From contig JAPETS010000032.1 of assembly GCA_026023565.1 (NCBI GenBank), positions 310,001-346,971 on the forward strand: 36,971 nucleotides of DNA, read 5' to 3'. The notes under the pieces are model-generated. The model was given only the letters and a program-made list of their open reading frames with translations. It searched no databases and had not been told where the DNA came from. Positions 20,212-36,930 of the stretch are shown piece by piece; positions within the stretch are counted from its first letter, which is position 1; each line of letters begins with the position of its first letter. Source of the DNA: Cirrosporium novae-zelandiae (taxonomy: Eukaryota). Both the position numbers and the translations under genes were made by a program.

Positions 20212-21237
20212 ATGGCCACTCAAGCAGCTAGTGTTTATCCCCCACTGGAGGATCGACCTATCAAGAACACCATTTGTCTGTTTGATGTTGATGGTACTCT
20301 TACTCCTGCGAGACGTGTGAGTAAAGCAAATAAAAAATATCAATTGTTGCTAATATCAGTAGGACGTCTCCCCCGAAATGCTTCAGATTCTTTCTCAACT
20401 TCGTCACAAATGCGCCATTGGTTTTGTATGCCCCTCATTACCCCTCGTTTTGGTGTACACCGCAACTAATGAATGTTACCTGTAGGTCGGCGGCTCTGAT
20501 CTTGTAAAGCAACAAGAACAACTTGGAACATCAACTATTAATGTCACCTCCCTGTTCGATTTCTGCTGTCCAGAAAATGGACTTACTGCTTTTCGTCTCG
20601 GTGAACCCTTGGAGGGTAGCAGCTTCATCCAGTGGATTGGCGAGGACAAATATATGAAATTGGTGAATTTTTGCTTGGCATACATTGCAAACTTGGATAT
20701 ACCTAAGAAGAGAGGAACTTTCGTCGAGTTCAGGTATTTCTTTCTACTATCAGGGTCATTACAGAGTATAAGGTGCTAATGCTACTTGAAATGCAGAAAG
20801 GGAATGATCAACGTCAGTCCAATTGGAAGAAATGCTACAACGGAAGAAAGAAACGAATACGAAAAATACGACAAGGAGCATGGCGTCCGAACAAAGTTTG
20901 TTCAGGCGCTCAGGGAGAAGTTCGGAGATTTTGGCTTAACGTTCGTACCTTGCATCTGTTGGTGATCCACTTGACTGACCTGATTAGCTTCTCAATTGGT
21001 GGCCAGATCTCCTTTGACGTTTTCCCAGCTGGCTGGGACAAAACCTTTGCTTTGAGGCATGTAGAGAATGAAGAAAAGGTGTCTGGGGTAAAATATTCGA
21101 CGATCCATTTTTTCGGCGACAAGACTTTCAAGGGGGGTAATGACTACGAGATATACAGTGATCCTAGAACAACTGGTCATTCTGTGACGGGACCAGACGA
21201 TACGATGAAGCTCTTGAAGGAGCTTTTCAGCCTGTAG
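20212..21237 (+). CDS. pmm1: Phosphomannomutase (HAD family, Sec53/Pmm1, ~269 aa)
   Basis: Introns 20317-20362, 20426-20485, 20734-20796 and 20941-20987 give an 810-nt CDS. Motifs [48 protein letters not shown] and [15 protein letters not shown]. Confidence 0.97.
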
Positions 21238-25584: not shown

Positions 25585-28062
25585 ATTTTTCGTAATGTCT
25601 TCAGCTTCCCCGCAAGGTCGATCGGTTTTGGATTTTCCTTCCCTATGTTGGTTTTGTTCTTGATTTGCTGACGTGAGATGCTGAGATAGGCTTAGCAAAT
25701 AGGATGATGTGGTAGTAGATACAATATTGGCGTATGGTCGACGACTTCTTCGAAGTCCAGCTCCAGGAAGACGACGATATAAAATGAAAACAGGATATAA
25801 ATTAGTATGGAGAGTCCGGCTGTCGAAAAAAGAAGAAGTAGGTAAAGGTTGGGTAGACGGGAGGAGTTTTGTCCCAAGAGCTTTAGACCAAGTCTTCTGA
25901 TTAATGGTGATAATGTCTAGGGTTCGGCAGTAGCATCAATGGATACCCTTGAAGTCTAGAGAAATTTGTTGGGTCAAAAGAGGTCGGATGGCTTGTTGGC
26001 GCAAAGGTCTGCACCTATGAGATGAGAGGGCGCGAAGAGGGGAGGTTGGATTGGAGCTTTGATAGGTGGAGGGGGGATGATGAGGGGTGATAGGGCGTCT
26101 AAATATAGCTGTATCTAGACAGTATGATTAGTAAATTTAGAAGTCTTTTTTTCATTTGAAATGCTTTGTCGCAGTATTTCAGACTCTCAACGTTGAAACA
26201 AATAAACCTCACCTTTACACGTTGACTAATTGATATTGATCAAGTTCCTATCATCCCGAAAGCATTACACATGAAGGTTGATTCACGTAGAATCATCCAA
26301 TTGTAAAAATCAAAAGGATGAAAGGTCCTCAGATAAAAAAGTAATAAGAGTAAAAAAATAATAAAATAAAAAAGGTAGGAAAGCGGTTAGGTGTTAAAGC
26401 TGGGCGCTTCAACTAGGTCTTTGTATGGATACAAAGATAGCGGGGAAAAGTGAACAGCTAAGAGTATAGTCAAGCATGTCAGCACTTTAGTCTGGGATAA
26501 ACGGCATGAAGGATGGCATCGATTCCCAATTATGGCTCCATGGATTTCAGCGCCAACGAAAGGTGGAAAAGGTGGAAAAGGTGGAAAAGGTGGTACGAAG
26601 GATGAGATGATTTGGTTTTTCAAGTGTGACGGGCTGCAGATGTCGAGGCAAAAGGATCCAATTAAAGCTTCAATTAAGCTGTTGCTCTCCATAATCTCTA
26701 ACTTTGTTTCCACTGGGCGCTTACACTGCCAACATTCACCAAACATCGTGATGATTGGTTTCTTGGATAATAGTAAATGAAACAATAGTTGATATTTGTT
26801 TTTCATCGAGATTCTTTGCTGTAAAAGTTGTCTTGAACCAACAGTTGGTATTGTGTATAAAGTCATAATTTAAAGTTATGAAAGTATAAAAGGGACAGTA
26901 GTGCAATCCTCACGGTAATACTAATTAGTGACATCATCATCACCACCACTACTGCCACCACCACCACCACCACCACCACATGGTAAGAAACAGCTGCACT
27001 GCCCTACCGCCAAAAAAAAAGCCAAAGTCATCTTTTCGAAGCAACACCTAAAATAAAATAAAAAAAATATAAAATATAATCAAAGCTAAATAACTTTCAT
27101 CCATCATTACCATTATATTATCATCATCACCAAATTACCTTCTAAAGACCAAAAAAAAAAAAAAAGTCTCGAATCTAACTTCAGAGCAAAATTGAATAGC
27201 GACAGCGACAGCTACAGCTACAACATCTCCTGCAATTAATTAGATATGTAGTGTAACATTCCAAAGTTAGCCCCTCCTCCGCATTATGCAAATAACCTTT
27301 CTTCCTTCATCCTTCATCATCATCATTATCGTCGTCGTCGTCACTCGACCTAACTACAGCTCAGCCCAGCTCAGCCCTCCCAAATAAATTCGCCCCAAAT
27401 GCAAGTACTTGGCCCTTACTTATGCATAAAAGAACATCCATCTGTAAACAGAATGACATACGTATCCTCGGAGTTCCAAAATAAAACAAAGGGATTACTT
27501 TTTCTTATATTTTTATCATCTATTATGCGACACCTTAATATCGACATGTGCCCTTGGTTCATGCTTCCCAATCAAAATATCAGCTGATTTATAAATACAG
27601 TACATGCCATATTAATTCCATTTTGAAACATAATAATCATAGCAGCCTCATCTATAGATGTTTGATATAATCGAACTTCCTAAATAAGCTTAGCATGTCA
27701 AGGGCTGTGTCTCGGTGGCCAAACTCCGCTACTTTCAGATGCAATTTCAACCAACGCCTATGTCCTATAAGTTATAATGGAAGTGTACTATAAGTCTTCA
27801 ACCCCAAGACTAGTGGAATATGGAGGACTATACTTGGGCAAGGCTCGTGTAACCCGATTCCCCAGGCGTCTAAATGGCGTGCGCCACGTATCAGGCAGGA
27901 CAACCCTTCAAACAGCCTTGCTTTTAGCTTTTCATTAAGTACATATAACTTTAGGTAGTCGAAAAGAGCCTGGTGATATCAATGTCTTAGTGTTGCGATT
28001 CTTCTATTTAGATACTTGATTACTCTCCGTCTCCCCATAGTGAACGATTGCTGTTTCCACGA

Positions 28063-31000
28063 ATGGCGGCAGTTTCATTGGCTCCGAGTCAGCAAAAGTA
28101 AGGACGTGTGCTCTGTCTCATGTGTTTCTCGACTCACTGGAAGTAGTTCAGTTCAAAGACAAGCTATAGAAAAGGCTCGGTTGACCTTTTCACGTCTACC
28201 GAATGGAGACGCAATATTTAGGCAGTGCGTTGATCACTCCGAGACGGTCGTTGATGTGTTCGAAGAGGTTACTCGGAGACATCGCTCTCATCAAAGTAGA
28301 ACGTCTACGAGATTGCTTCAGCGGTTTGGAAACCTTACATATTGGCTGCAAAGCATTTCTAGAGCGGTTGACGTTGCAGTACAAACGCAAGCTGGAATAG
28401 GATGTCCACTCTGGGCACCTATTAAATTCGTTCTCATGGTAAAATCCCATATTCTATTAAGGTTGATCGGACGTGCTGAAGACATTATGAGGTCTCAGAT
28501 AGCCATACACAGGCTGCGCAGTACATCCTCAACTTGATAGAGACTATATCGGATAATCTCCCCCGCCTCAAGCTCTATGAGGAAATGAAATCGGATAACA
28601 TTTTACAAACGGCTCTTTTAAACGTGTTCACAGACATTGTCGAATTCTCCGTAAAAGCAGTGCAATACTTTGGTCGAGGAACCCTAGGTCTGTATTCTAT
28701 TTATCGATTAACTATGGTGGCTGACGATAGCTGGCATGCAAGTACGTTTAAGTAGACTTATTTTGCATCCAACCAAAGAGGAGTTTAGAGATATCACGGA
28801 ACGCATTGTGAGACACGCCAAAATTGTAGACCACGTGGCTGTTGCGACTGAGCTTATAAAAGCTGATAAATCCCGGAAAGGTACACTTTTCATGTCCGTA
28901 TGTAGCTTTCAGTAAAGCTGATGGTTGCCCAGAAACTCGACTAAGACAGGAGCAAAATCTGCAGCTGCAGTGTGAAGGATGGCTGAGACCATCAAACGCT
29001 CGAGTGATCCAGCAAGATCAAGCTCAGAAAAGGCTTTCCGGGACCTGTGAATGGATTTGGACCAACAGAATGTTCATGGATTGGTATACTGCGCCGTCCT
29101 TATCAGCTTCAGACAAGCTTATGTGCATCTGCGGGACTCACGGTTGTGGCAAAAGCGTTCTAGCCTCCTTCATTATCGATCGCCTGTGGAAAAACCAATT
29201 GCACGCTTTATTCTTCGCATTCTCTGGCACGAATGCTAATCAGCAGAATTTGGATGGATTGATTCGTTCACTTCTATGGCAGTTACTGCAAACCACCGCT
29301 AGCGAGAAAAGTGTCGGCATACTCCATAGCTTGATGTTGAGGGGCCGACCTCTAACTTCTGAGCTGTGGGAGGTCTTTAACAAGATGGCCGTATTCGTCA
29401 CGGAGCCAGTTTACTGCGTGGTCGATGGGGTTGATGAGTGCAAGGACGCAATCCAGGAACTGATCCGGAACATTTTCAACTTCCTCAATGCTCATTCCAA
29501 TTTTCGCTTCATCTTGCTCGGCCGTCCACACGCATTTCAAGCGGTGGATTCCATCCGCCATACACTTGAGATATGTCCTGCTTTGACTGAAGGGGATATT
29601 GATACAGTTATTGAGACCAGAATAGTTAAGTCTAAAATCCTTAGTCTGCCAAAATTGCGGGATACCATCTTCAAAACTCTTCGGGAGCAGTCGGATGGGA
29701 ATTTTCTTTGGATTAAGCTCATGCTTGGGCAACTAAATAGGTCGCTTACACTGGCTGAAGTGTCGATGAGACTGCATAATTTGCCACATGACCTTGAAGC
29801 GGCATATGAAGATTTTATTTTAGAGCTCGTCGAGAGGCTAGATCCCTCGGAATTAGACCTTGCTCGGAAAGTTTTAGCGTTCATAACTGTCTCCCAACGT
29901 CCGTTAAGTCTGAACGAGTTCCAGCATTTACACGCTGCGGATGCCATGTCCATTTGTCCACATGAAAATGATTCATTTCAGGACCATCTCCTTCTGGAGC
30001 CACGCAGAATCTTAGACGTCTGTGGTGATCTTATCAACATCACGGACGGTCGTTTGCGGCTAGTACACTTCTCCGTCAAGGAGTTTCTAGTCAGACCCGA
30101 AACTCAATGGCTACAGGGCAATAGTCGCAAAATAATGCGCTTTCGGGTACCTTTAGAAGACACGCATCGTTCGTTTGGTGCTGCGTGCGCGGAGTACCTT
30201 AAAACGAGTGACTATGGTTCTCTATTAAATGACTCGGACACCTCTCCGAGACTCGAGAAATACTATCCCTTCCTGGATTATTCGTCTAGGTATATGATTA
30301 CCCATCTAAACCAATCTGGCCCACCTTCAGCACCTATACTTGAGAAAATTGACAGATTTCTAAGCTCAGATAGATTTATATCTTGGCTAGAACTCTTTGT
30401 TATGAATATAGTTGAAGATGAATCTCTCCATTCTCAAGCCGATGAGTTTCAGATGTTTGGGGATTGGCTGGACAATGACTGGCGTCCGGAAAAACTTTCT
30501 GTCAGCAAGGTTTCAGCCCGTCTAGAGGGTGAACTTACGAAGCGAACACAACAATATGGGCAAAATGATTCGCGCGCTGAGCAACTACGACTATTCCTTG
30601 GCATTTTAAAAGACACCAACACATTGCCCAACAGTCGAGGCAGTCAAGCTGCAGGTACTTGTGCAGCTGAGAGTTTAGGAGGATCAACGGACATTTCACC
30701 GATACTGCACATACTTCGCAACGAGGTTCCGCTCCCGCTACAGTTAAAGGTTAATCTACTTCTCAGACTACAGTACTATCTCCAAAAAGTCCAAGTACTT
30801 ACCGACCCCTTGAAAATCTTATTCCGCCTCATACTACAGAAGGCGTCGGTCATCCCAGTCTATGCACTTCTTCTTATTGGTGATTTCTACCGGAAAGTCA
30901 ATAAGTTTGAACAGGCTCTTGACATTTACTCTGCGGCCCTTACGAAGATGAACACTCAGGAGACGCCAACGAAATTTCTTGTACTTCACTTAACTGGCCG

Positions 31001-32305
31001 CACCTACTCCGATCTCAGTCAGCATGATGAAGCTTTAGAGTATTTTAACAAAGCCCTAACAGGACGAAAAAAAATACTAGAGCCAGAACATAGAGATATT
31101 CTAGCCACAATATATTGGATAGGCATTACTCATTATAAGTTCGGTCAACTTAACAAAGCTTTGGAATATTTGGGAAAATCTCTAATAGGAAGAGAGAAAG
31201 TACTAGGGCCAAAACACGAAAGTACACTATCTTCAGTACATTGGATAGGCAGTATTTATTTCGAGCTCGGTCAATATAATAAAGCTTTGGAATATTTCGA
31301 AAAAGCCTTGGCAGGAGAAGAAAAAGTGCTAGGGCCAGAACATAAAGACACACTGTCTTCAATATCTTGGATAGGTTCGACCTATTATGAACTCGGTCAA
31401 TTTAACAAAGCTTTGGAATATTTCGAAAAATTCCTAATAGGAAGAGAGGAAGTACTGGGGTCAGAATACAAGAGCATACTATGGTCAGTATGTCGGGCAG
31501 GCAGTACTTATTATGAGCTCGGTCAGTATAACAAAGCTTTAGAATATTTCGAAAGAGCTTTGGTAGAACAAGAAAAGGTGCCAGGGTTAGAACACGAAGA
31601 TATACTGCCTTTAGTATATTGGACGGGTATTACTTACTATAGGCTTAACCAAAATAATAAAGCTTTAGAGTATATGAAAAAATTTCTAGCAGGATATGAA
31701 AAACTATTTGGGCAAGAGAATGAAAAGACTCTGTGGACAGTATACCAGATAGGAATTGTCTACGACCATCTCGAACAGTATGACGAAGCTTTAGAATACT
31801 ATCAAAAAGCTCTAGCAGGAAGAGAGAAGGTGCTAGGACCAGAACACGAGGATACTTTGGAGGTAGCTGCTGATTTAAGGGAGCTTCAAGAGAAACTATC
31901 CGATATGGAATCATCTATGTAAGTTCTCTCCCAGTAATGGTTAGGTTCGATAATTACCAGGAAACAACTGACGGAGTTATAGGGAGCTCCAGGGGGAACT
32001 ATCCGATATGGAACCGTCTATGTATATTTTCCTACAAAAAAATAACCAAGTTCTAGAATTATGAAAAATATATCTAACGGAACTATAGGGAGTGTCAAGA
32101 GACGCTGTCTGACACGGAATCGTTTGGGTATGTTTTTTCTGTAGAGACGGACCATATTTGAGAATTACCGGCAAACAACTAACGGGATCATAGGAGGCTT
32201 CAAGAGACGCTATCTAACGCGGAACCGTCTGGGTGAGTTTTCCTCCAAAGACAACCACCTCCTACAATCATCACCACAGCGATTTAACGAAGTTATAGCG
32301 ATTAA
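28063..32305 (+). CDS. Fungal NLR-like STAND protein: helical N-terminal domain + NACHT NTPase + TPR repeats, with a microexon-encoded C-terminal tail
   Basis: ATG at 28063; introns about 28098-28146, 28439-28491, 28688-28730 (or 28742) and 28881-28932. Motifs LWAPIKFVL, GTCEWI, Walker A GTHGCGKS, Walker B VVDGVDEC, SDGNFLW, LHNLPHDL and LVHFSVKEFL, followed by 42-aa TPRs. The unspliced ORF stops at 31922; four further introns extend it to a TAA at 32303-32305. Confidence 0.88.
31030..31870 (+). repeat. 126-bp coding tandem repeat (TPR units, about 7 copies)
   Basis: The anchor AAGCTT recurs at 31030, 31156, 31282, 31408, 31534, 31660 and 31786, an exact 126-nt spacing. Confidence 0.95.
31880..32298 (+). 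repeat. Four tandem ~105-bp units, each a 39-nt exon segment plus a 64-67-nt intron
   Basis: Units begin at 31880, 31983, 32089 and 32194. Each has a donor (GTAAGT, GTATAT, GTATGT, GTGAGT), a branch site (CTGAC, CTAAC, CTAAC, TTAAC) and an ATAG acceptor. Confidence 0.85.
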
Positions 32306-33959
32306 AGGCAGCCGCCTATCCCCCGCCTAGAAGAGGTATAGTTTTCCATTTTAGGCCCCGAAACCCACCATCACCACCATCACCACCACCATGATACTAT
32401 CCATCATAATAGCCAGGAGAACAATGACGGTTGGGTCATGCGCAAGGGACCAGTCTTCAAGTCAGAACTGCGGAAAGATGGGATAGGGAGAAACGGAAGT
32501 CAATGGATCTAATTAACAGCGAAAGGCCAAAAGCTGAAAGGATTGATCGATGAAGGGGAATGGAAGTCCACGAAAGTTCACGGAGTTCACGGGGTTCATC
32601 ATGGTTATTAGATAGTTGGATTTGGTTTGATTGGTTGGTTTGGATTTGTCTGGTTTTGTTTGGTTCCATTTGGTTTTGTTCCATTTGCCGCATTGCATCA
32701 ATACTTGCTTATATATAATATAATATAATGTAATGCAATCACCTTCACCTTTTACATCCAATTCCAACCCCAACTCCAACCATTAAAAAAAAACAACATA
32801 GAAAGGAAGGACCCTTTGGAGCTAAGAAGGCAGTGTTGTAAAAGATCCAGGGAAAAACCAAGACAGCTAGAGAAAGAAAAAAAAATACAAGCAAACATTA
32901 CACACACACACACACACACCTCAGAGAGCTTTCTTAATTAACTCAAACAAGAGCCCAAGTCCAAATCAAATCAAGGTTTTTCAAATAATATAAAATTCTT
33001 TTTTTTTTTTTTTTTTTTTTCCTTTCCTTGACTTATAAACCAAATAACTTTAAAACTTTCACTATAACTTATGTATATAGTAAGTTGGTATATTTCTCTC
33101 TCTGCTCCTAAACAACTTAAAAAAAAGGATAATAATACTATGCCATGCTCATACTTTCAAAACTAATACCTATATAAAAAAAAATAAAAAAAAAAATAAC
33201 ATAAGACTAAATTTGCATATACATACATACATACATACATATACATACATATATATATATATGCACAAAAAAAAAAAAGGTATAAAGGTTCTTATGAATT
33301 CCGAGAATATATGTTTGGACTTTCTTTCTTTCTGTAGAGAAGATATATGATAATAAAAAAAGGAAAAATGAATATCCCTTAAAAAAACACCTTTCCATGC
33401 TCCTTGCTCCTTGTCCCTTATCCTTTGCCCTTATCCTTGGGGGTAATAACGGGAAAAAAAAAAGAAAAAAAAGAAAGAAAAAAAAAATGATGGAAAAAAA
33501 AAAAAATAACTTGGAGACTCCAACACACTCCTTTTCACCAAAATGTAGTAAGTTAGTTATTCCCCCATCCCCCGCCTTTGGTGTAATCCATACCCATATG
33601 CCTTAATCGTATCCCATGATGATTCCATTTTAAAAACGTGTGTGTGTTTGTGGCAAGTTGCAGTGCAGTGCAAGTGAAAATAGTGAAAAGAAAAAAAAAA
33701 CCCCCAGTTTGCAGGTGTTGGTACAGTTTGCCTTCCCAAACTCCTCCTCCCCCCTCCTTTCCTTTCTCCCTTGGAAATCAAATTCCCATATGTTAATTCT
33801 GCCAATTTGGTTATTCCCCCCAAAACGCCATTGCGCAAATAACGATGGAAACGGTCAATAGCAAAAAATGATTTTCGGTCTCTTTTTTCGTCTCATTTCG
33901 TCACAATGTATACATCCGCTCCCTTTCCTTTCTTCCTGCTCCGCTGTTTCGCGTGCTTG

Positions 33960-35993
33960 CTACCGCGGACCTTGACTACTCAATGCTGCAATTTGGGCCT
34001 GTTGCTGCGTTACCATACCACCCAGACGTCCAACTTCATTTTGCAACGTCAATATCTTTTCCTCCAAGCCCCTGATATAGCTCCATAGTCCCTCATTCCC
34101 TGGTTGCACGCTAAACATGTTTGGCTGGAGATTTGGATTAATATTTGGGTTAGCGTTTTGCTGCGTGCTTTGAGGATTCGATATCGACGAGATGGTTGAA
34201 GCTGTATCACCACTTCCATGAGATTGGGGAGGTGGACGAGCGACGGTGCCATGGCTGGATGTGCTATTATTGGTAGAAGGGGGATATGAATTTGTGATGA
34301 TGGAGCTGGGTTGTGGTGGGTGGGAAGATGGTAGCGATTGTTGGCTATGTAACGTATATCTCGGATCCGAGCTGGTAAGACTAGGGAGAGACGGTAACTG
34401 TGGAGCTGTACTCATTGATGGCAGACCGACCGGAGGAGGAGGAGTACGGTTGCTAGCACGACGACCCATCTGTTGTTGATGAAATTGTTGGGTGAAGCTT
34501 GGAGAACGGTTGCGGTTGATATTGTTATCATGAGGCTGCGGAGGAGGGGCATGCCCTGCAGCTGGTGAAAGAGGTTTAGGACTTTCAGTCATACCACCTT
34601 GAGCAAAAACAGGCGGTGCACCAGGTTGATGATATTGAGTTGGACCGCTAGGAGCTGGTGGGAAAGGTATGGTGCTGGATTGAGATCCGGGAGACGTTGA
34701 TGCGCTGGACATGCCGGTTGGAGGAGGATAAAGACTTCCTGTGGCTTGCCGAACAGGAGGATAGGTACTAGGCGACCGTTGGTAATGCATATGTCCAGGA
34801 GGTGCTTGAATCTGAGGATCGGCTGGATGCCGTTTAATGGTCGGTAGACTTTTTCTTCGATCATTGTCATCCATCTCCTTTGGGTCTGTAGTATATACCA
34901 ATCCTTCCATCTCATCATGTTGGTCATGTTCTGGCTCTGCATATTTCTCCTCGGTCCCAAAACCACCCATGCTCGATCTTCTTCCCGCACAACCTCCGGC
35001 TCCTTTATTATGTCTTGCGAGAGCATCACCCCTGGCAAAGCTTCGACCACATTTCCCGCAGACGTGAGGTCTCTCTCCGGTATGCAATTTGGTGTGCCGT
35101 TTGAGGTCATGCAGACGTCGGAACCTCTGATCACATTGCTGGCAAACATACGGCTTCTCTTGACTATGAGTAAGCAGATGGCTCTTGAGATTATGATGAC
35201 GCGTAAACTCTGTTGAACAATATGGACATTTATGTTTTTTGGTCGATGGTGACCTGGGACTGGTTTGTCTCGTAACCGAATGCGGAAGACTCATACCTCG
35301 ACGTGGATCGTTTCCCATTTGAGCACTCAGCAGAGGGCCTGGGTACGAAAATGCTTTGTTGTCGTGGGAAGGTTCTGCTCCTGACGTCTGGACATTGTGG
35401 TCGAGGTCTGTAATTTGTCCGGGGCTTGCGACGGTGACATTTGCCGTCACCGTTACTCCCGTCGCGCTATCCAATGTACCCGTGGTGTCAAAACTTGAGA
35501 GACTGACCGGACTGGTCTGGGAAGTATTATCTCCGTGTGCATCCTCAGGAATGTGTAAAGACTTGGCTACATCGGTCATGGGTTCGCTCAGGGTTTTGGC
35601 TGGATTCGGCGCCTCGTCTGGATTGCTCATGGGAGCCTCTCGCACCTCCATTAATGCTGTCAGGGCCTGATGTCGTGGATTGGGACTTGTCTTTTGAGAT
35701 TCGAGTTTCCGCTGCTCATCCTGCCTTCGTCGCTCATCAGCCATCGCAGCTGCTGCCGTCATGGATGGCGCTGTAAATGATCCAGTCTTTGGGATTTTTG
35801 TCAGGCTCGGTCCTGGAGATTTCCTTAACCCTGCACTCGCAATGTCACTCAGATTCGGGGACGCGGGTCGTTTGCGAGGGGTCTTGGGACTTGGCTTGAG
35901 AAATTGCGTCGAGTCGGAGGTGGACTGGATGGGAGATGATGCGATCGAGGCAGGAGTTGTTGCTGGTGCTGTTGTTGGTATCGCCTCTGCCAT
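33960..35993 (-). CDS. C2H2 zinc-finger transcription factor (three fingers, C-terminal coiled coil)
   Basis: Single long ORF with its first ATG at 35993. Fingers: HKCPYCSTEFTRHHNLKSHLLTH-SQEKP-YVCQQCDQRFRRLHDLKRHTKLH-TGERP-HVCGKCGRSFARGDALARH. P/Q/S-rich region and an LWSYIRGLEEKILTLQNEV coiled coil. Confidence 0.92.
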   Translation of the reverse strand: MAEAIPTTAPATTPASIASSPIQSTSDSTQFLKPSPKTPRKRPASPNLSDIASAGLRKSPGPSLTKIPKTGSFTAPSMTAAAAMADERRRQDEQRKLESQKTSPNPRHQALTALMEVREAPMSNPDEAPNPAKTLSEPMTDVAKSLHIPEDAHGDNTSQTSPVSLSSFDTTGTLDSATGVTVTANVTVASPGQITDLDHNVQTSGAEPSHDNKAFSYPGPLLSAQMGNDPRRGMSLPHSVTRQTSPRSPSTKKHKCPYCSTEFTRHHNLKSHLLTHSQEKPYVCQQCDQRFRRLHDLKRHTKLHTGERPHVCGKCGRSFARGDALARHNKGAGGCAGRRSSMGGFGTEEKYAEPEHDQHDEMEGLVYTTDPKEMDDNDRRKSLPTIKRHPADPQIQAPPGHMHYQRSPSTYPPVRQATGSLYPPPTGMSSASTSPGSQSSTIPFPPAPSGPTQYHQPGAPPVFAQGGMTESPKPLSPAAGHAPPPQPHDNNINRNRSPSFTQQFHQQQMGRRASNRTPPPPVGLPSMSTAPQLPSLPSLTSSDPRYTLHSQQSLPSSHPPQPSSIITNSYPPSTNNSTSSHGTVARPPPQSHGSGDTASTISSISNPQSTQQNANPNINPNLQPNMFSVQPGNEGLWSYIRGLEEKILTLQNEVGRLGGMVTQQQAQIAALSSQGPR

Positions 35994-36930
35994 AGGCAAT
36001 TAGGTCAAGGCATTCAATTTTTTAACGTATGATGTGGCAATCTAAGGGACTGGAAAATGGTGTCAACCTATGAAACTGGTTAGCTTTTCGACAGCGATAA
36101 TAATCAAAAACAAGCGCCGTTTGGGTTCAAGTCAGTCTAATGTTGTGGATGATTTGGACGTTGTAGATGCATATCGCGAGAGGCAGCTCCATATCATGCC
36201 GAATGATGTTGTGGCGCAAGGATTGCCCTTAGTGACGTCCACCTCTCACAGGACGGCTGACCAATTGCGCGCAAAGGTCAATTTCCAGATATAGTGGATT
36301 CCGGGCGCAAAATACTAAGGATAAAGTGCAAATGAAGAGGAAGCTTTGCATACTCTTGTTGTTTCTTGAATGTGGCTCACCGAAGGATGTGGCGCGACAA
36401 CGTTGGATGTGTGGATGCCAGGCACAGGATACAACGCAGTACCGACCCAATCCGAGAATAATGATTGATTCCAAGACTTTTTTTTTTTTCCTAAGAAGAC
36501 GTAGGTGTTGAACCAAAGGAAGAATATAGATAGTTGATAGATATGTTGTTTATTATTTCATGTCAAAGTCCAAAGTATTTTTGTGTTGTTTGGAAAATGA
36601 ACGATTCGGATGGTTCGAGGTCGCGAGGGAAGTATAGGGTGGAATAGGTGGAAGCTCGACCGAAGCGTGTACGGGGCCGAGCAAAAGTCTTGATCGGAAT
36701 GAAGCAGACAAGTAATGTTTCCGAAGAAATCAGTCCAAAAAAAGACTGAAGGGTTTGCGCATGAGGCGATGAGGTTGAATTAGGACAGCTGAGATAATCT
36801 TGGAGCAATTGTCAGCGTCGACAAGCTTTTGCGCTGGAGAAGGAGTGGAAGAGATGCGATGATGGCGGCTCTGCATTTGCGCGGGTGATGACTTTGCGAA
36901 GTAACGGAAGTTACTTAGGTGCGATTGGAT

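Follow-up and report, generated by a model that had tools for sequence, protein, structure and literature searches.

Where does the protein encoded by a fungal gene end if the stop codon of its long open reading frame (ORF) is itself part of a splice donor? This question is raised by an NLR gene of Cirrosporium novae-zelandiae, a fungus that taxonomy assigns to the Xylobotryomycetes, order Xylobotryales, and that is mentioned alongside Xylobotryum in PMC6712537. In the stretch of 36,971 nt analysed here (hereafter the window), the ORF of this gene closes with ATG TAA at 31917-31922, and these letters overlap the donor AT|GTAAGT. An initial annotation, made from the letters of the DNA, had placed four short introns behind this point, each with a GT donor, a branch-like site and an ATAG end, separated by three stop-free mini-exons of 39 nt in phase 2-2. 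Direct reading of positions 31500-32700 and alignment of the repeated units matched this layout base for base, for the stop, the introns and the mini-exons alike (Table 1), and the translation of the spliced tail was reproduced. The mini-exons had further been described as diverged copies of the last 39 nt of the large exon, and mini-exons 1, 2 and 3 are indeed 85%, 69% and 67% identical to it.

The host gene

According to Pfam, the 972-codon ORF that ends at the TAA of 31920-31922 combines an NTPase domain (NPHP3_N/NACHT) with six to seven repeats of TPR_10/TPR_12, the architecture of the fungal NLRs surveyed in PMC4986451. Two of the parts by which a fungal NLR is recognized were found, the NTPase domain (NPHP3_N, E = 9.7e-31; NACHT, 28.0 bits against a cutoff of 26.7) and the C-terminal repeats (TPR_12, E = 9.3e-70; TPR_10, E = 3.8e-51). 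Judged by these domains, the array-bearing gene is a fungal NLR of the NACHT + TPR type. At the DNA level, the TPR-coding part at 31030-31688 also forms a tandem array (period 126/252 nt, 71-78% matches), an instance of the strong conservation among internal repeats that is described for fungal NLRs (PMC4986451).

A protein search retrieved a 100%-identical record of 1119 residues, entitled 'MAG: hypothetical protein M1834_005521 [Cirrosporium novae-zelandiae]' and referred to below as P0001. Mapped onto the window, this public model has exons at 28585-28687 and 28731-28880, followed by the large exon, mini-exons 1 and 2 (Table 1) and a last exon at 32194-32236. It starts at the ATG at 28585. 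Its frame stays open for 35 codons further upstream, and an ORF of 173-186 codons, ending at 28537, lies in another frame just upstream of the model; the NLR may lack part of its N-terminus in this annotation. With regard to an N-terminal effector domain, the upstream ORFs at 28016-28537 and 27977-28537 gave no Pfam match of any kind.

The other genes of the window are ordinary fungal ones and encode a DEP/RhoGAP protein, a Cdc6/ORC-like protein, a UBX protein, a kinase, an MFS transporter, a phosphomannomutase and a C2H2 zinc-finger protein. The zinc-finger gene (33960-35999) is convergent to the NLR gene, and simple repeats are found between the two, at 32365-32391 (CCACCATCA x2.7) and at 32563-32687 (GTTCACGG- and TTTGGTTT-type runs).

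Layout of the array

The region 31880-32298 consists of four head-to-tail units of ~105 nt, numbered 0 to 3 (31880-31982, 31983-32088, 32089-32193 and 32194-32298). Each unit is made up of 39 nt in the frame of the upstream ORF and an intron part of 64, 67, 66 or 66 nt, respectively.

Table 1. Features of the 3' part of the NLR gene, in window coordinates
Feature	Position	Strand	Basis or remark
Large NLR exon (Pfam NACHT/NPHP3_N + TPR_10/TPR_12)	28933..31918	+	Limits from mapping P0001 onto the window
Unit 0, last 39 nt of large exon	31880-31918	+	Unit alignment
Intron 1, 64 nt, GTAAGT ... CTGAC ... ATAG	31919..31982	+	Reading, alignment, P0001 mapping
Mini-exon 1, 39 nt, phase 2-2, P0001 residues ~1080-1093	31983..32021	+	Alignment, P0001 mapping
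Intron 2, 67 nt, GTATAT ... CTAAC ... ATAG	32022..32088	+	Alignment, P0001 mapping
Mini-exon 2, 39 nt, phase 2-2	32089..32127	+	Alignment, P0001 mapping
Intron 3, 66 nt, GTATGT ... CTAAC ... ATAG	32128..32193	+	Alignment, P0001 mapping
Mini-exon 3, 39 nt	32194..32232	+	Public model continues the exon to TGA at 32234-32236
Putative intron 4, 66 nt, GTGAGT ... TTAAC ... ATAG	32233..32298	+	Unused in public model
Seven coding nt (C GAT TAA), frame end if intron 4 is removed	32299..32305	+	Reading and spliced translation

A blastn comparison with the whole window gave self-matches of the array, shifted by ~104 nt (E = 4e-15) and by ~209 nt (E = 5e-8), and the alignments obtained, at offsets of ~104, 209 and 315 nt, were whole-unit alignments alone. 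By these statistics, the repeat exceeds chance. The units have what characterizes tandem exon + intron cassettes, that is, significant head-to-tail copies, each with a coding and an intron part. No further copy of the array or of its introns was found by blastn elsewhere in the window. Tandem Repeats Finder did not report the array even at a score of 30, which is expected because the copies are just 60-70% alike.

The array had been called hidden. This applies to an ORF track only, as P0001 already carries the spliced tail through the third mini-exon: the public model splices introns 1-3 exactly as proposed, leaves intron 4 unused and ends at a TGA inside the fourth donor (GG|GTGAGT). The protein would end in ...SGD if intron 4 is spliced and in ...SG if it is not, the final Asp being the sole difference. 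P0001 was not counted as independent proof of splicing because its source states no basis for the model, which a gene finder may have derived from these very splice signals. A search of sequencing runs found the stretch in one DNA run (X1, probably the source sample) and in no RNA run; it is absent from runs X2 and X3 of the same study.

Conservation of splice signals

To evaluate the intron parts, nine signal columns had been fixed beforehand from general knowledge, comprising the GT of the donor, the C, T, A and C of CTRAC, and the YAG of the acceptor. Eight of these nine columns are invariant across the four units, compared with 14 of the 61 other intron columns, in agreement with the original claim that the introns keep their splice signals. 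The hypergeometric P value of this enrichment is 2.7e-4, or 1.1e-3 with the R column counted; leaving out the varying column gives an eight-column version with P = 3.8e-5, next to which 2.7e-4 is the more conservative figure. The lone varying column is a C to T change in the branch site of unit 3. The branch-like sites of units 0 to 3 (CTGACGG, CTAACGG, CTAACGG and TTAACGA) lie ~10 nt before the intron end, and the variation among the donors stays inside the fungal consensus, the weakest of the four being that of intron 2, with an A at +5. All four units thus display the make-up of a short U2-type fungal intron of some tens of nucleotides, with a 5' GT and a CTRAY-type branch site ~10-20 nt before a YAG.

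The same holds for each unit singly: 8/8 core signals are kept, while the remaining intron columns match those of the other units at 0.57-0.68. For unit 3, which carries the putative intron 4, the eight core signal columns match the other units as against 0.57 elsewhere in the intron (P = 0.011), and this retention mildly favours a working fourth intron.

In the window, both strands included, 10 occurrences of the pattern GTRNRT..YTRAC..6-16 nt..YAG (length 45-90 nt) were counted, of which four are the array introns; random Markov sequences contain 7.8 +/- 3.4 occurrences. Just 4% of the GTRNRT sites in the window continue into the full pattern.

An internal standard is provided by the phosphomannomutase (PMM) gene, three exon pieces of which match positions 17-96, 99-144 and 146-220 of the Pfam PMM profile. 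Continuity of the profile fixes two of its introns, at 20734-20796 (63 nt, GTATTT..GCTAAT..CAG) and 20941-20987 (47 nt, GTTCGT..CTGACC..TAG). As a whole, this gene (20212-21234) is interrupted by four introns, 43-63 nt long, whose donors (GTGAGT, GTATGC, GTATTT and GTTCGT) are rather degenerate. By comparison of motifs, the array introns fit the intron style of the genome and are closer to consensus than the PMM introns. Taking these signals together, we regard splicing of the array introns as probable.

Constraint on the coding parts

Alignment gaps are confined to the intron parts, and all exon parts are exactly 39 nt long. Invariant columns account for 18 of the 39 exon columns and for 14 of the 61 non-signal intron columns (Fisher p = 0.027). 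Nei-Gojobori pN/pS ranges from 0.26 to 0.53 in five of the six unit pairs and amounts to 2.47 for units 2 and 3. The initial annotation held that the introns have diverged more than the exons; this is weakly so for the mean pairwise identity (~0.60 against ~0.70), and the order is reversed for units 1 and 3. In our reading of the alignment, the peptide is weakly constrained and the splice signals are more strongly so; four units of one ancestor are few data, however, and gene conversion could mimic conservation.

These data also bear on the explanation that rivals splicing most closely, namely that the protein does end at the TAA of 31920-31922 and that the array is a non-coding tandem repeat, located in the 3' UTR or intergenic, which arose when the end of the gene was duplicated along with the DNA behind it; its intron look would be inherited from a single unit and be without meaning for the mRNA. 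As would suit such a repeat, the variable exon columns are distributed 7/7/7 over codon positions 1, 2 and 3, without third-position excess, and in simulations of three copies the frame stays open by chance in ~24% of cases (P ~0.24). Moreover, the close homologs P0002-P0008 stop shortly behind the last of their TPRs and have no such tail, and the tail is without a homolog in the word-based and HMMER searches described below. On the other hand, a non-coding repeat leaves unexplained why 8/9 signal columns are invariant when 77% of the other intron columns vary, why indels avoid the 39-nt parts, and why pN/pS is below 1 in 5/6 pairs; the rarity with which a GTRNRT site of the window leads into a full intron pattern likewise speaks against it. 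All in all, a non-coding repeat appears rather unlikely.

The predicted tail

An AlphaFold2 (AF2) model of P0001 was built with 39 homologs and has a mean pLDDT of 80.5. Its repeat region consists of helical repeats, with pLDDT values mostly of 69-96. The last helix (residues 1057-1086) takes in unit 0 as well as the beginning of mini-exon 1 and is followed by a segment of low pLDDT (residues 1085-1119, <50; ~31 from residue 1091 on) without notable contacts. The added 39 residues are accordingly predicted by the model to be disordered. The last 45 residues of P0001 include 12 Asp/Glu and 1 Lys/Arg. An acidic tail of this kind might perhaps act as a pseudo-ligand for the kinesin-light-chain-like TPR groove; docking of the tail on this groove is not seen in the AF2 model, where the tail is unstructured, and the idea receives no support from this model.

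A word-based search with residues 1060-1119 of P0001 among 26 candidates of 615-1959 residues returned the self match only. Likewise, an HMMER search with the last 63 residues against 1.84 billion cluster representatives, where another protein may stand for the cluster of the query itself, gave 0 matches at E <= 0.001. For the entire protein, the best relative among the matches listed is 53-54% identical, and at this distance a shared array was not expected. Among 120 proteins from the matches listed, 27, P0001 included, have a net acidic charge of at least 10 in their last 45 residues (further examples are P0076, P0090, P0097 and P0115), and several acidic tails of the family hold short repeats, that of P0090 having a period of ~10 residues with 85% self-match. 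Most of the acidic-tailed relatives are distant (35-37% identity) and come from metagenomes, and the closest relatives inspected (P0002, P0003 and P0006-P0008) have no acidic tail. Because acidic tails recur in the family while these closest relatives are without one, the tail is, by this sequence comparison, an independent invention of something that the family tolerates or uses.

Proposed regulated splicing and a possible assembly artefact

The initial annotation went further and saw in the cassettes a means of regulated splicing, by which NLR isoforms with 0-3 extra 13-residue units or with a truncated end would be made. Its arithmetic is sound: the symmetric mini-exons can be skipped in frame, all 10 donor-acceptor pairings (10/10) keep the frame, and retention of intron 1 or intron 4 leads to an immediate stop, with the ends ...SSM* and ...SG*, respectively. 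Retention of intron 2 would add 13 residues, that of intron 3 would add 11. The recurrence of acidic C-terminal tails among the matches listed also means that tails may matter in the family. Nevertheless, short introns with strong signals favour constitutive removal, and the tail, predicted to be disordered, docks nowhere in the AF2 model. Across 23 fungi, in addition, intron retention is described as accounting for 61% of alternative-splicing events, against 3% for skipped exons, and intron definition is considered to prevail (PMC3925392). Regulated splicing of the cassettes is in our view very unlikely; if isoforms exist, truncation by retention would be the likelier kind. We give similarly little credence to the idea of a length dial, in which the joining of any donor with any later acceptor, together with retention, would tune the acidic tail of the NLR.

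An assembly artefact is more improbable still and was rejected, since, although the locus comes from a metagenome-assembled genome (MAG), the units diverge from one another by 15-41% in the exon parts and by more in the introns, which collapsed or duplicated reads would not, and a 5,908-nt Logan contig (run X1), separately built but probably from the same sample and hence not an independent assembly check, covers 31400-32800 with 0 differences and 0 gaps.

The explanation that best accounts for the locus as a whole is therefore, with reasonable though not high confidence, that exon-end + intron cassettes were copied in tandem and that their introns are spliced out. The introns would then be removed and the mini-exons included constitutively, and the tail would be an extension under weak constraint rather than a device for regulation.

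Origin of the array

Under tandem copying of spliced cassettes, the last 39 nt of the large exon and the short intron following them would have been duplicated head to tail through unequal crossing-over or replication slippage, yielding four units. The spliceosome would remove each intron of 64-67 nt separately (intron definition), so that the mRNA would gain three extra 39-nt exons and the protein 3 x 13 acidic, serine-rich, disordered residues behind the last TPR capping helix.

An origin by local tandem duplication, as originally put forward, is well supported by the four aligned units and by their highly significant self-match. The accompanying term 'intron gain' is appropriate insofar as the copy number of the exon + intron unit rose; a newly made intron is not demonstrated by the array. 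The succession of events was probably not a simple one. The exons pair as units 0 and 1 (85% identity) and units 2 and 3 (77%), and the introns pair as units 0 and 2 in their 3' halves (77%) and units 1 and 3 in their 5' halves (69%). No simple duplication tree fits both the exon and the intron pairings of the four short units, and the mosaic similarity, as it appears in the alignment, calls for at least two duplications and for exchange among the units.

As to the first intron, it may conceivably have arisen from a stop codon and 3' UTR, when a duplication across the stop codon made a functional donor of G|TAAGT. Any phase-2 GTRAGT donor brings an in-frame stop with it, so that this stop speaks neither for nor against such a birth of intron 1. 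That unit 3 has kept its signals is slightly in favour of a terminal intron that predates the duplication.

The differences among the units comprise 18 transition and 3 transversion columns in the exons and 27 and 8, respectively, in the introns. This transition excess presumably fits either ordinary bias or a RIP-like process. The exon part of unit 0 has a GC content of 38%, those of the other three units 54-56%.

Comparison with known systems

Tandem exon duplication is familiar from animal genes, with the 54-bp exons of collagen, the PEVK exons of titin and the exon arrays of Dscam as examples. The present array resembles these in its head-to-tail exon + intron copies and symmetric exons, whereas the animal arrays belong to another lineage and scale, depend on exon definition and are often alternatively spliced. 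Introns from tandem arrays are also said to have been treated by Zhuo et al. in 2007. In the Rogers model, reportedly, duplicated exon sequence supplies the new intron, and the old mRNA is recovered by splicing. As in that model, the new introns of the array would stem from local tandem duplication. Unlike in the model, the duplicated unit already holds an intron-like part dissimilar to the exon part, and splicing would extend the protein: 39-40 residues would be added and the old end would not be restored. In the self-blastn comparison whole units alone aligned with one another, so that the intron part does not represent copied exon sequence.

Intron gain by tandem genomic duplication has been described for an RdRp gene of potato (PMC4974935), and gain by tandem duplication for cases in Drosophila (PMC2891723). 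In an article on fungal introns, tandem genomic duplication is called the only intron-gain mechanism demonstrated in vivo (PMC8469720).

The initial annotation knew of no description of such an arrangement. For the principle this does not hold, as internal tandem repeats at exon-intron boundaries are known in human genes, where they are described as giving rise to new introns and to alternative transcripts (De Grassi & Ciccarelli 2009; PMC2812944). In both systems the units carry splice sites, and expansion adds introns and lengthens an amino-acid repeat. The human boundary repeats described there occur in primate genes, have transcript support and frequently undergo alternative splicing, whereas the present array belongs to a filamentous ascomycete, has four diverged units with introns of 64-67 nt and is known from DNA alone.

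Within fungi, the repeat domains of NLRs are described as highly conserved and evolving concertedly (Dyrka et al. 2014; PMC4986451). The gene studied here belongs to the same NACHT + TPR family, and its C-terminal part likewise appears to grow and reshuffle by tandem repeats. The repeats of that survey are structural WD/ANK/TPR units, whereas here a 13-residue unit, predicted to be disordered, is interrupted by introns; the word 'intron' has 0 occurrences in the survey text. In titles and the openings of abstracts, no fungal or NLR case of such cassettes was found, which does not prove its absence in print.

Implications

Copying the end of an exon together with its intron is a known way for genes to grow. 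If spliced, the array would be a clean and still-legible case, in a filamentous fungus, of several introns and exons gained at once, being young enough that the homology of both exons and introns between the copies stays readable. To our knowledge, such examples are scarce outside animals and plants. Cases of this kind help to calibrate how far intron number can rise without transposon-like introners. For the biology of NLRs, just a disordered acidic tail would be added. For annotation, an ORF-level stop inside GTAAGT may not be the true end of a fungal gene.
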